From assembly GCA_965612785.1 (NCBI GenBank), contig CBFDTC010000002.1, forward strand, positions 978-24,977: a DNA stretch of 24,000 bases, written 5' to 3'. The DNA comes from Candidatus Bathyarchaeota archaeon (lineage in GTDB: Archaea; Thermoproteota; Bathyarchaeia; TCS64; CBFDTC01). This document shows, in pieces, positions 30 to 5,317 of this stretch (the first letter of the stretch is position 1; every line of letters starts with the position of its first letter). Under the pieces are notes generated by a model. That model was not told the origin of the DNA. It ran no database searches and worked only from the letters and a program-made list of their open reading frames with translations. The position numbers and the translations under genes are program-made.

Positions 30-1027
30 TCAGCCCCTCGTCCTCCACATCCTCGGGTACACCCCCCTGGGCATCAGAACCCTCTCCGTCTTGGCCACGA
101 GACCATGCTGAGCCTCGACTATCTGCTCGCTCGTCATCAAGGCCTTGGCCAGGGCCACAGCCTCCCCCTTCTGCGTCATGACCGCCACGAGGCCCCCCGG
201 AGTTATGCCCGTCTCCACGCTGAGGACTCCCGGAGCCGCCAGATGCGCTCCGTGGCAAACGGCGTCCACGGCGGAGTCTCGGATGTATATCTTGGGCAGG
301 TGGTCCAGGGCTTTCTCCATGGGCTTGACGACGTTTCTGATGAGCCTCTCGTCTCCGTCCTCCCTCCACGCCATCACAGCCTCGACGAGGTCGTGCATAG
401 TGGCGCACTCATCCTCCACGAACGGTCCAGCCCTGGTCCTCCGGAGCTCCCTCATGTGGGCTCCGCATCCGAGCACCTCTCCGACGTCGAAGCATATCTT
501 CCTGACGTACACGCCGGCCTCGCATCCGACCCTGAACAGCACGTCCTGCCCGTCCACCTCCAACACGTCCAGGTAGTATATCCTCCTCTTACGGACACGC
601 CTCTTTACCGAGGACCTGAGAGGCGGTCTCTGGTATATCGTCCCGACGAACTCAGCCATCACCTCCCGGACACGCTCCTCATCCACAGGCTCGTGCAACC
701 TCATGACCGCTACGTACTCCTTCCCAGCCGTCAACAGGGCCGTCAACACCTTTGTAGCGCTGTTCAGGGCGACGGGCAGGACACCCGTAACCTTGGGATC
801 TCCCCGACCCCTCACGGGGTCCCTAGGGTCCCACCGTGTCCAGCCCGTCGGACGCCGAGGATTCGCTTAACCCAGGCTGTGACCTCGTGGCTCGTGGGGC
901 CCGGGGGCTTGTCTATGGCGGCGACGCCGAACTCTATGTACGTCTCTATGGGCCTGCTCTCAGGCTCGCATCCATACGCCGGGTTTGTTCCCTCCTCAGC
1001 CTTGACGAGGAGCTCCCTCTTAACCAT
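30..1027 (-). CDS. cbf5: Cbf5 / TruB-family box H/ACA RNA pseudouridine synthase, interrupted by a 23-nt intron (exon 1 = 1027..823, exon 2 = 799..30; 324 aa after splicing)
   Basis: Track ORFs 812..1087 and 30..815 together match archaeal Cbf5 end to end: [48 protein letters not shown] then [43 protein letters not shown] and a PUA-like C-terminus. The break falls inside the catalytic GHGGTLDPKVTG motif. Removing 800..822 restores both the frame and the motif (205 + 770 nt = 325 codons). The start is taken at ATG 1027, because the upstream part of the track ORF does not resemble Cbf5. Confidence 0.9.
800..822 (-). other. Bulge-helix-bulge (BHB) intron in the cbf5 pre-mRNA, 23 nt (5'-GGACCCCGUGAGGGGUCGGGGAG-3' on the minus strand)
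   Basis: Minus-strand RNA from 833..794 folds as follows. An outer 5-bp helix (833-829 with 798-794). A 4-bp central helix CCCU/GGGG (828-825 with 805-802). A 3-nt bulge AGG (824-822). A 6-bp inner helix GACCCC/GGGGUC with a GUGA tetraloop (821-806). A 3-nt bulge AGA (801-799). Cleavage between bulge nucleotides 2 and 3, as in tRNA BHB sites, joins ...CUAG to AUCCC..., giving GGG ACC CUA GAU CCC AAG, which encodes GTLDPK. Confidence 0.8.
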
Positions 1028-1204
1028 CCAGGGGGCCTCCAACACAACCACCAACAAAAATACAACCACCGCAGAAGATAAGCCCAACCTGAATCATAGT
1101 GCGACCGAGCGGCGGAGCATAAGATTTCTTTACGCAATCAACAATCCGCCCGTAAGGCTGAGAACATGACGCTTAAGCCCTGAGAAGGCCACCTCTACAA
1201 CGCC

Positions 1205-1528
1205 GTGCCCAAACCGGGCTACACCACCATAACCCTCAAAACTCACGTCAAAGACCGCCTCTACCAAGCCATGCACCAGGCCGGATACACAAGCCTAAAC
1301 GACTTCATACTCCACCTCTTGAGGACCGTCCTGGGACGATCCCAAAACGCCCGAACAGAAGCCCTTTGGTGCGGCCGCCGGGATTCGAACCCGGGACCCC
1401 CGGCTCGGGAGGCCGGTGTCCTCGACCAGGCTAGACGACGGCCGCCTCCGTTGTTTTTAGGTGGTCTGGTGGTTTATGTCTTTTTCGTCGGCGGGTTGGT
1501 TATTACGTTGTCCGTGGTGTTCGGGTGA
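1205..1528 (+). CDS. Hypothetical ORF with a ribbon-helix-helix-like N-terminus that reads antisense through tRNA-Gly; possible integrated-element remnant or spurious
   Basis: It starts at GTG. Its first ~45 aa (PKPGYTTITLKTHVKDRLYQAMHQAGYTSLNDFILHLLRTVLG) fit a strand-helix-helix (CopG/Arc-like) pattern. Codon use is atypical for this window: all 3 Lys codons are AAA, and CGC, CGA and CAA are used. From residue ~55 the ORF simply translates the complement of the tRNA and the G+T-rich spacer. Confidence 0.3.
   Translation: MPKPGYTTITLKTHVKDRLYQAMHQAGYTSLNDFILHLLRTVLGRSQNARTEALWCGRRDSNPGPPAREAGVLDQARRRPPPLFLGGLVVYVFFVGGLVITLSVVFG
1367..1445 (-). tRNA. tRNA-Gly (anticodon CCC), with genomically encoded 3' CCA and no intron
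   Basis: The reverse complement is GCGGCCGTCGTCTAGCCTGGTCGAGGACACCGGCCTCCCGAGCCGGGGGTCCCGGGTTCGAATCCCGGCGGCCGCACCA. The acceptor stem is GCGGCCG/CGGCCGC and the D stem is GTCT/GGAC. The anticodon stem is CCGGC/GCCGG with loop CT-CCC-GA. The T arm is CCGGG-TTCGAAT-CCCGG, the discriminator is A, and CCA follows. Confidence 0.95.
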
Positions 1529-1753
1529 TGTTTTTCACGTTCCGTGTAACATGGAGGATTGTGTTACAGCTGGTTTCTGGTGTTCGTGTCCTTCCGCTGA
1601 CCACCCCCCTCCGTGGGGTTTGAAACGTTGCCAGCTGGTTTAACGTCTCCCACCCTGATTTCCTCGTGGTTTATGGCTACTTGAAAAAGCAGTTCAGCAT
1701 GGTGGACTCAGGTCTTATCTCCCCGTCTTTTCAGAGTTGGTTTGGGGTTGGCC

Positions 1754-2581
1754 ATGGAGGAGCTCATCGTATGTCAAAACTGTGGTAGGGAGGTACCCAA
1801 GACGCTGTACTGCATATACTGTGGAGCCGAGCTTCCGAGAGACTTCTTCAAGAAGGAGGAGTCCACAGGCGTCAGAGCCCCCACGCCTCCGGTAAGCCTG
1901 GACGTGGCCCAGCTTATGAGCGGGATAATGAAGTACTACACCTGGAAGATACGTCTGTTCGGAGTGCTGAAGGACGGCGGTGTCTCGGAAAGTGTGTTCA
2001 AGAGGCTGTTTGAAGAGTACGTCTCCAACCTGAACAGGCTGATGAAGGAGCGGAACGAGAGGCTGGAGAACTACCTGACGGAGCTGAAGGAGAAGCAGAA
2101 GAGGCTTGAGGAGATAAAGATGACGCTGGAGGAGTTGAAGGTCAGGTGTGCGGTCGGGGAGATAAACGAGGACGAGTACAGAGTCAAAGCCCCCGACCTG
2201 GAGGGTGAGGCGGTCAAGCTGGAGGACGAGGTGAACATGCTGAAGAGACACATAGACTACCTGAACAACGTGTTCGCCGGAAAGAGGCCGAAGGAGGTTC
2301 TGGAACTGGAGAAGGTGGCCAAGGAGTGCTACGCCTCGATAGACGACCTCGTGAACAACGGCGTGATAAGCCGGGAGACCGCCGAGGAGGTCAGGAAAGA
2401 CCTCGAGGAGACTCTGAAGTTCTTCGAGACGGTCATAGGGGACCGTAAGGAGAGGGAGAAGGCGCTGAAGGAGGAGCTCTCGACGCTCGAGGCGAGGTAC
2501 AAGGTCGGCGAAATCTCGATAGCTGAGTACGAGAGGGCTAAGAGGGAGATTAAGGCTGAGTTGGAGAAGATATGGAGTTAA
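1754..2581 (+). CDS. Zinc-ribbon plus coiled-coil protein with four SHOCT-like G(E/V)(I/V)S...(Y/F)..K..L repeats; function unknown
   Basis: The N-terminus carries CQNCG-x10-CIYCG (CxxC..CxxC). A long Glu/Lys-rich heptad region follows. The repeated motifs are DGGVSESVFKRLFEEY, VGEINEDEYRVKAPDL, NGVISRETAEEVRKDL and VGEISIAEYERAKREI. ATG 1754 is preferred over the track's TTG at 1742. Confidence 0.7.
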   Translation: MEELIVCQNCGREVPKTLYCIYCGAELPRDFFKKEESTGVRAPTPPVSLDVAQLMSGIMKYYTWKIRLFGVLKDGGVSESVFKRLFEEYVSNLNRLMKERNERLENYLTELKEKQKRLEEIKMTLEELKVRCAVGEINEDEYRVKAPDLEGEAVKLEDEVNMLKRHIDYLNNVFAGKRPKEVLELEKVAKECYASIDDLVNNGVISRETAEEVRKDLEETLKFFETVIGDRKEREKALKEELSTLEARYKVGEISIAEYERAKREIKAELEKIWS

Positions 2582-4180: not shown

Positions 4181-5317
4181 TCAGGCTCTCATGAACTCGA
4201 CGAGTCTCCTCGCAGCCGTCTGCAGGAAAGCCCTGACATGCCCAATGCCCTTCACCCCTTTCCCGACGGCCACACGCACCCTAACCGCGTCCACCTCGAC
4301 CCGGATGGGCTTGACGCCGACCAGCCTGTACACGGCCTCGGCCACGTCGTCTTCATCCACTTCCGGGACCTTCTCGACGCAGTCGTTCGGGCATCCCGTG
4401 CACATGCCCGTCGCCCAGCATACGCTCATACAAGGCACCGAGGCTGTGTAGGCGTTGGCGCAGCACGCTGATGCGAACGGTGTAAGCCCCATGGAGTCGG
4501 CGTGTTCGATTATCCTGGCTTTCAGGCTTCCGAGGGGGAGCGTCTTGAACCTCCCTTTCCCAGGCTTGAAACTCGTTGCGAGGCCTATGGTTGAGAGACG
4601 CCTGGCTATCCTCTCCGACAGCCTTAGGGAGCCCACGACAACCCCCTCAGCTCCGCTTTCCAGGGCCCTGGAGAGGATGCGCTGGTACTCGTGCTCCACC
4701 AACCCCCTTATGGCAGGCCTGAGGAAGAGCATCGGCCTCAGACCGAGGTCGGCCATGTCCCCGATCATCTGGAACCTCTCCTCCGGAGTCGGGGCGTTGG
4801 GCTCAAGCCTGCGGTGGGCTCTGAGCGTGACTATCGTTACGAGGGGGTTCAGGGACACCCGCAGGCTCGCAAGCCTCCTCAACACCTCCCTGGCCACGGG
4901 GGTCTTGGTCGAAAGCTGACAAGGGTTTCCAAGCCACCTCGAAACAGCTTCGAGGTACTCGACTGTCTTCGGGACGACTCTCGGATGGAAAGGGTCGCAC
5001 AGACTTCCGAACGCCAGGAACGTGCCCTCAGGACCTGGGACGAAGCTCGGGTTGTGTAGGAGGGCTGCCACGACCTCCAGGCCGGACAGGCCGTACAGCT
5101 TAGGTGGATCGTCTACAGAGACTATGTCAGGGACGTAGCAGTAAAGGCATCCGTTGGGGCATCCCAGGGCTGGATGTACGGTCATCCCACAAGGCCTTGG
5201 GGTCCTCCTGGCGTGGTAGTCTGCGTGGGCCTTCCTACGTGAGTGTTCGTCGAGTAGTTGGTCCACCTCCTCCCTGAGCTTCCTCTTCCGGTCCAGAAGT
5301 TTGGTTATCCGTCTCAC
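4181..5317 (-). CDS. Radical SAM protein (COG1533 / SplB-like layout) with an extra C-terminal Cys-rich segment; substrate unknown
   Basis: The CxxxCxxC motif is GCPNGCLYCY near residue 53. Downstream are GSLCDPFHP, QLSTKTPV and LEPNAPTPEERF, typical of the COG1533 family. The C-terminal cluster is CCANAYTASVPCMSVCWATGMCTGCPNDC (Cx3Cx5Cx2Cx3C), which suggests an auxiliary Fe-S site. It starts at GTG. Confidence 0.8.
   Translation of the reverse strand: MRRITKLLDRKRKLREEVDQLLDEHSRRKAHADYHARRTPRPCGMTVHPALGCPNGCLYCYVPDIVSVDDPPKLYGLSGLEVVAALLHNPSFVPGPEGTFLAFGSLCDPFHPRVVPKTVEYLEAVSRWLGNPCQLSTKTPVAREVLRRLASLRVSLNPLVTIVTLRAHRRLEPNAPTPEERFQMIGDMADLGLRPMLFLRPAIRGLVEHEYQRILSRALESGAEGVVVGSLRLSERIARRLSTIGLATSFKPGKGRFKTLPLGSLKARIIEHADSMGLTPFASACCANAYTASVPCMSVCWATGMCTGCPNDCVEKVPEVDEDDVAEAVYRLVGVKPIRVEVDAVRVRVAVGKGVKGIGHVRAFLQTAARRLVEFMRA

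Follow-up and report, generated by a model that had tools for sequence, protein, structure and literature searches.

A predicted bulge-helix-bulge intron in the catalytic aspartate codon of cbf5 from a Bathyarchaeota-affiliated archaeon

How does an archaeon obtain an active Cbf5 protein from a gene that breaks off within its own catalytic motif? This question is raised by a 24-kb stretch of DNA (hereafter the window) from an uncultured Bathyarchaeota-affiliated archaeon, in which cbf5, located on the minus strand, is interrupted by 23 nucleotides (nt) at positions 800-822. The gene appears there as two open reading frames (ORFs), 812..1087(-) and 30..815(-), which share a 4-nt overlap. Read without splicing, the frame runs to ...GGTLGTP and is stopped by a UGA (812..814, minus strand, read 814-812) that forms the end of ORF 812..1087. 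Judging from the sequence and from its comparison with relatives, the 23 nt very probably constitute an intron of the bulge-helix-bulge (BHB) type, the removal of which by splicing is predicted.

Removal of nt 800..822 in silico yielded GGG ACC CUA GAU CCC AAG, with exon 1 ending ...CUA G and exon 2 opening AU CCC, and the catalytic aspartate (Asp) codon was put together from G823, A799 and U798. The spliced gene is an open frame of 1035 nt, from TTG 1087 through the stop codon. Its product scored 480 bits against the NCBIfam Cbf5 model NF003280 (cut-off 242), contained the Pfam domains DKCLD, TruB_N, TruB_C_2 and PUA, and could be aligned to P. furiosus Cbf5 (PDB 3lwo, E = 4e-128) without any gap across AGHGGTLDPKV. 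According to the translation and to the Pfam and NCBIfam matches, exon 1 (823..1042, minus strand) encodes the DKCLD domain and the beginning of TruB_N to ...AGHGGTL, plus G823, while exon 2 (30..799, minus strand) supplies the AU of the Asp codon, PKVTGVLPV..., the remainder of TruB_N, TruB_C_2 and PUA, up to the stop codon at 32-30.

The minimum free energy (MFE) structure obtained with RNAfold for nt 833..794 of the minus strand, UGGGACCCUAGGGACCCCGUGAGGGGUCGGGGAGAUCCCA, was (((((((((...((((((....))))))))))...))))), at -23.1 kcal/mol, and the same BHB fold was also found in a 100-nt context. In this fold the complete hBHBh' motif (794..833, minus strand) consists of an outer helix of 5 base pairs (bp), UGGGA/UCCCA (833-829 with 798-794), a 4-bp central helix, CCCU/GGGG (828-825 with 805-802), two 3-nt bulges on opposite strands (AGG, 824-822, and AGA, 801-799), and a 6-bp inner helix (821-816 with 811-806) closed by the hairpin loop GUGA (815-812). 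The predicted intron, GGACCCCGUGAGGGGUCGGGGAG (23 nt, 800..822, minus strand), has its 5' splice site at 823/822 and its 3' splice site at 800/799. The exons contribute the outer helix and the 5' strand CCCU of the central helix, and the intron contributes the 3' strand GGGG and the 6-bp hairpin. The motif is of the strict hBHBh' form, having two 3-nt bulges, a 4-bp spacer helix and flanking helices of at least 2 bp (here 5 and 6). In the window lineage, the BHB is moreover lengthened within 764-863(-) by exon-exon pairing of GGACAC with GUGUCC and of CGACGGGC with GCCCGUCG; these additional helices are not kept in the sister lineage (L007-L013) and were rejected as part of the motif, being lineage-specific or coincidental.

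Thus far, the locus agrees with the original prediction, made from the sequence of the window, that cbf5 is split into two overlapping ORFs within its catalytic motif, that the RNA folds into a helix-bulge-helix-bulge-helix structure with 5 bp, 4 bp, 3-nt bulges, a 6-bp hairpin and a GUGA loop (every detail of which was reproduced by RNAfold), and that excision of 800..822 restores the frame and the catalytic Asp, which in silico gives a full Cbf5 with an intact GGTLDPKV. The same prediction held that automated annotation would miscall the gene, and this has in fact happened, two ORFs having been called and the two fragments being stored publicly as separate proteins, P0001 and P0141.

Independent assemblies of the same lineage and of its sister lineage, at least 10 in number and drawn from ENA, JGI, Logan and NCBI, showed the same split of cbf5. 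The intron of the sister-lineage locus L009 departs from that of the window at 5 of 23 positions, of which two make up a compensatory change from A-U to G-C in the inner helix and three belong to the loop (GUGA to UUAG). For the same pair, the ratio of nonsynonymous to synonymous substitution rates (dN/dS) in the spliced frame was 0.046 for exon 1 and 0.061 for exon 2, at a dS of 0.77. Since dN/dS is about 0.05 in the spliced frame at this degree of synonymous divergence, cbf5 is functional, and it is so as one reading frame. The start of the downstream ORF is not conserved: the GTG of the window (815-813) is part of the variable intron loop, L007-L013 have no counterpart of it, and the exon-2 products called in the relatives have 231, 234, 255 or 261 amino acids (aa).

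A larger set of junctions was obtained by scanning JGI metagenome contigs with the exon flanks fixed and 14-44 nt left free between them, the pattern prescribing GGGAC together with certain codons downstream. In this way at least 120 contigs (L094-L213) were obtained, each with an insert of 14-42 nt at the same cbf5 site; all of them code for Cbf5 after splicing, and cutting by the bulge rule restored the frame in every case. Among 122 distinct junctions on contigs other than the window (the JGI matches listed and further related loci), the central helix, made up of the four exon bases that follow GGGA and of intron positions -6 to -3, was fully paired in 121; the strict hBHBh' form was found in 111. 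Synonymous exon variants co-vary with the intron, CCCU being accompanied by GGGG or AGGG, CUCU by AGAG or GGAG, CCUU by AAGG, and CUUU by AAAG. In a register-fixed alignment of 80 distinct sequences, compared with 500 shuffles, pairing reached 99.7% in the central helix, where two pairs covary, and 95.4% in the inner helix, where three do; none of the 500 shuffles reached the observed covariation, and sliding the register gave at most 56% pairing. The BHB structure of the cbf5 intron is kept by selection, through compensatory changes.

The exon side of the motif could be compared with 78 intron-less cbf5 genes, in which GGG occupies the relevant Gly codon in 14 and the outer helix can form in 2. 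It can form in all four of the intron-bearing lineages that were found without a nucleotide constraint (the window, L005, L016 and L081). Because this helix is available to all four of these intron-bearing lineages but to no more than 2 of the 78 genes that lack the intron, synonymous sites of the exons are co-adapted to the RNA structure. The alternative that the site was predisposed to receive an intron by a pre-existing GGGA/UCCC was ruled out by the same count, the helix being possible in only 2 of the 78.

By analogy with the splicing of archaeal tRNA and rRNA and of crenarchaeal cbf5 (PMC2738675, PMC7714728, PMC10485636), from which the steps of cleavage and ligation are taken, the tRNA-splicing endonuclease EndA would cut each bulge between its second and third nt, AG|G at 823|822 and AG|A at 800|799, and an RtcB-type ligase would then join the exons. 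The junction would rebuild the Asp codon as G + AU, giving a full-length Cbf5 of 324-329 aa. Translation of the unspliced mRNA would stop at the UGA of the intron loop and yield an N-terminal fragment of about 71-81 aa, to ...GGTL, that would lack the catalytic Asp; because of this, production of active Cbf5 would be coupled to splicing. A regulatory role, by which active Cbf5 is made only when the splicing machinery is present, is a conjecture, as it is for the crenarchaeal intron. No special endonuclease would be needed, since the strict hBHBh' form should suit every EndA architecture.

Several observations weigh against an intron. The fold energy differs little from that of shuffled sequences (z = -1.84, 11 of 200 shuffles folding equally well), and it was dropped as weak evidence. 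The bare hBHBh' geometry, with G-U pairs allowed and both strands considered, occurs 60 times in the window, as compared with 51±8 times in dinucleotide shuffles. In L002 and L007-L013 the Asp codon is GAC, which places an A·C mismatch beside the 3' bulge and therefore makes the motif slightly relaxed there. The protein collection holds no spliced full-length Cbf5 of this lineage, the best match being the exon-2 fragment and the next one being 68% identical. Neither endA nor rtcB is among the identified genes of the window (Pfam on ten ORFs, the others by reading translations); EndA is near-universal in archaea. Finally, splicing would have to outpace coupled translation on a near-leaderless cbf5 mRNA, which the proposed scheme does not explain. 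BHB-like geometry is commonplace by chance in a GC-rich window such as this one, and the motif alone is not significant; since its geometry matches shuffles, BHB pattern searches in GC-rich archaeal DNA need a frame break or conservation in addition. A long hairpin at 4190-4290(-), flagged by the geometry scan, was likewise not significant (z = -1.18). Chance cannot account, by a wide margin, for a motif placed at the frame break of a conserved gene, for a catalytic motif restored exactly, or for the covariation seen on comparison. The case for the intron rests on frame restoration, on purifying selection on both exons, and on exon-intron covariation.

Three other explanations of the interrupted gene were weighed against the same data. 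The two ORFs might be a genuinely split gene, the polypeptides of about 71-81 aa and about 261 aa assembling into an active enzyme as has been reported for some Nanoarchaeum split genes, and the gene callers, which predict two ORFs with a 4-nt overlap, together with the public records of both fragments as separate proteins, would fit such an arrangement. We consider it very unlikely: the break falls in the catalytic Asp codon, and therefore neither fragment carries this residue; the GTG with which the second ORF would begin belongs to the intron loop and lacks conservation, the callers' starts varying among relatives; inserts may be as short as 14 or as long as 42 nt, but the bulge-rule cut always restores the frame; and the covariation preserves an RNA structure for which the translation of two ORFs has no need. 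A pseudogene, or a 23-nt insertion created by assembly or sequencing, has an even smaller place in our assessment. A frame-breaking insertion in a conserved gene does resemble decay or mis-assembly, and the fold energy alone is not significant, but independent assemblies from ENA, JGI, Logan and NCBI share the same insert, and purifying selection acts strongly on each exon when it is read in the spliced frame (dN/dS 0.046 and 0.061 at dS 0.77). No second copy of cbf5 was seen in the 24-kb window or in the related loci examined, a search that did not extend to whole genomes of the lineage.

It is also barely conceivable that the interruption is handled at translation, by ribosomal bypassing (hopping) over the 23 nt or by programmed frameshifting. 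A stable hairpin and an in-frame stop after a take-off region do bear a superficial likeness to the phage T4 gene 60 bypass. The take-off and landing codons do not match, however, being CUA before the gap and GAG-AUC after it, and the inserts of 14-42 nt in relatives would each require a different hop. What is conserved is the BHB register, with its 3-nt bulges, 4-bp central helix and covariation, and this register is specific to recognition by EndA. A spliced BHB intron remains the explanation that we retain in what follows.

An intron in the cbf5 pre-mRNA has been described in crenarchaea (Watanabe et al. 2002; Yoshinari et al. 2006; Yokobori et al. 2009, PMC2738675). It was known from Aeropyrum and Sulfolobus, as the original prediction had correctly stated, and occurred only in Desulfurococcales and Sulfolobales, being absent in Thermoproteales, Korarchaeum, Cenarchaeum and Nitrosopumilus, a distribution from which a single gain in the ancestor of Desulfurococcales and Sulfolobales, with secondary losses, was inferred (PMC2738675). 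The published introns measure 16-44 bp, have mostly a relaxed or unconventional BHB and are thought to need a heterotetrameric endonuclease (PMC2738675). As late as 2020, cbf5 in Crenarchaeota was still called the only such case (PMC7714728), and reviews of 2020 and 2023 described the cbf5 intron as limited to a small group of related crenarchaea. Searches of the literature for such an intron in cbf5 of Bathyarchaeota, of Thaumarchaeota or of DPANN (ultrasmall archaea), which did not cover subscription-only papers, gave nothing beyond the crenarchaeal reports.

The window intron shares with the crenarchaeal one its host gene and its exact position, directly after the first nucleotide of the catalytic Asp codon, where splicing was demonstrated experimentally (PMC2738675), its size (23 nt, within the published range of 16-44) and want of an ORF, and its BHB-type boundaries, with cuts between bulge nt 2 and 3. 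A Desulfurococcales metagenome-assembled genome (MAG) with a 36-nt intron, L081, shows the same share of exon and intron in helix formation. The window intron differs from the published ones in that its host is affiliated with Bathyarchaeota and not with Desulfurococcales or Sulfolobales, in that the motif is strict hBHBh' whereas the published ones are mostly relaxed (a difference left out of the original prediction), and in that splicing, shown there, is deduced here from sequence. The architecture that they have in common may stem from descent or from convergence, since introns of such small size and under such structural constraint do not allow their homology to be judged. The window intron is real, of a known kind and a canonical BHB; its host phylum is one for which the searchable literature contains no prior description of it.

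Among EndA substrates more generally, the motif resembles the archaeal tRNA and rRNA BHB introns and processing stems in having two opposite 3-nt bulges, a 4-bp helix, and flanking h and h' helices. The order of its strands (5': outer, central, bulge, inner; 3': inner, central, bulge, outer) presumably matches that of the tRNA 37/38 intron. Unlike those introns, the one in cbf5 is located in a protein-coding mRNA, so that the ligated product must hold the frame, and there is no tRNA body to help recognition. The BHB intron of Haloferax volcanii HVO_1309 (PMC7714728) is likewise an EndA substrate inside an mRNA, but it lies in the 5' untranslated region and not in a codon, and it belongs to another gene and another lineage.

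How far does this intron extend beyond the window lineage? Taxon labels of the metagenome contigs rest on best matches. Genome contigs were scanned with the peptide AGHGGTLDP, which spans the intron site and thereby biases the scan against intron-bearing genes; it still gave labelled references and at least two intron-bearing genomes, L016 and L081, while the source species was not among the matches listed. As the metagenome pattern forced GGGAC and certain downstream codons, its counts are lower bounds and the genome scan was biased against the intron, the prevalence of the intron is not estimable from these data. Among the matches listed, MAGs of Bathyarchaeia were the best labelled match for 104 of 135 intron-bearing loci (57-95% identity), and one intron-bearing genome labelled Bathyarchaeia (L016, 24-nt intron) is a GTDB species representative. 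Contigs of Desulfurococcaceae were the best match for 14 of the loci listed (49-78% identity; Desulfurococcales/Sulfolobales-like). A further, DPANN-like group is AT-rich, carries introns of 14-17 nt and has its closest named relatives, at 61-67% identity, among Nanoarchaeota and Woesearchaeota; an exon-2 fragment from this group is recorded as a separate protein, P0352. At one DPANN-like locus (L138), a long in-frame ORF upstream of cbf5 was suspected of encoding a homing endonuclease, a suspicion that was abandoned as the ORF had no Pfam match. Three contigs from GTDB genomes (L035, L046 and L047), the genomes being labelled Anaerolineales bacterium, Candidatus Sulfotelmatobacter and delta proteobacterium, contain an archaeal cbf5, 55-59% identical to the query, and are probably mis-binned archaeal (Bathyarchaeia-like) contigs.

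The intron-bearing sequences form at least 96 intron-only clusters at 90% aa identity, and at least 25 at 70%. Presence of the intron differs between relatives with 93-95% aa identity in Cbf5. An intron-bearing gene (L162, 24 nt) and an intron-less one (L027) share 94.8% protein identity, and another such pair, L005 (17-nt intron) and L214 (intron-less), is 88.5% identical at the nt level, and the sole indel between the two consists of the 17 nt at G|AT. The intron-less member of this second pair, L214, keeps GGG...CCC and is one of the 2 intron-less genes, out of 78, able to form the outer helix, a state that is compatible with a recent and precise loss of the intron. Taking the distribution as a whole, it seems rather probable that the Asp-codon intron of cbf5 is not peculiar to Desulfurococcales and Sulfolobales but occurs at the same nucleotide, and polymorphically, in many Bathyarchaeia, DPANN and unassigned lineages, so that it would either be far older and have undergone many precise losses, or be subject to site-specific gain or transfer.

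The original prediction had also argued from the intron for a crenarchaeal origin of the DNA. This part is not supported, as the label Bathyarchaeota is attached both to the genes nearby and to the closest homologues. Two proteins of the same species, HDD72349.1 and HDD72075.1, carry the NCBI label Candidatus Bathyarchaeota archaeon. For SRP54, 11 of the 12 organism-named homologues in the best 120 matches were Bathyarchaeota or Bathyarchaeia and one was Nitrososphaerota, all at 66-70% identity. The spliced Cbf5 was 68% identical to its nearest full-length relative, 63-64% to labelled Bathyarchaeota and 54-55% to Desulfurococcales. NCBI taxonomy treats Bathyarchaeota as a phylum apart from Thermoproteota. 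The source lineage is deep, and because identities to anything beyond the species group stay at or below about 70%, we assign it only as Bathyarchaeota-affiliated. An intron at this site is not diagnostic of Crenarchaeota, since it is present in contigs that are labelled as, or match best to, Bathyarchaeia and DPANN.

At the 5' end of cbf5, the start codon is ambiguous: ATG 1027 is the minimal choice, and TTG 1042 or GTG 1045 appears more likely, because both the sister lineage (L007-L013) and related Cbf5 proteins keep an APW motif that is encoded just 5' of ATG 1027. Further upstream, the element CTTATCTTC (1074..1082, minus strand) is kept between the window lineage and L007-L013 while its flanks diverge, and at 1082-1074 it may be a TATA-like promoter box. 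A scan for bacterial promoters and terminators was uninformative, since the host is an archaeon. In Rfam, nothing but tRNA has a match in the window. A tRNA-Gly(CCC) gene (1367-1445, minus strand), intron-less and with a genome-encoded 3' CCA, lies on the same strand, about 280-340 nt upstream of the cbf5 start, the distance varying with the start codon chosen.

The gene at 1742-2581(+) encodes a protein of 279 aa. Its N-terminal segment is Cys-rich and zinc-ribbon-like, a SHOCT domain occupies the C terminus, and a long coiled coil gave a sub-threshold CdvA-like match (E = 1.8e-4, 22 bits, cut-off 30); a SHOCT-containing neighbour also adjoins cbf5 in L217. Positions 2950-24000 of the window form a dense block of information-processing genes. 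Pfam identified in it a TYW2/Trm5 methyltransferase, a radical SAM protein, PAC2, DUF655, Dph2, a methyltransferase, Endo_dU, PCNA and Gins51. From reading the translations, we take other genes of the block to encode aIF5A with deoxyhypusine synthase, SRP54, L10e, Csl4, TFS, PriL, PriS and aIF2-alpha, as well as a ribosomal-protein cluster of L5, S4e, L24, S3 and L22. On the other side of cbf5, the same-species contig L001 carries, 3' of the gene, a DUF429 protein, a cytosine/purine-type permease and an MttB-family (trimethylamine methyltransferase-like) gene.

One practical consequence is that these MAGs would appear to lack Cbf5 or to have a broken copy, because gene callers split an essential gene in two. 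As to the biology, very few protein-coding genes of archaea are known to depend on splicing of the tRNA type, and cbf5 is among them; its synonymous exon sites, fitted to the intron, offer a clear case of RNA-structure selection on coding sequence. The wider distribution described here reopens the questions of when the cbf5 intron arose and of how BHB introns come and go, and the natural pairs of relatives with and without the intron allow its gain and loss to be put to the test.

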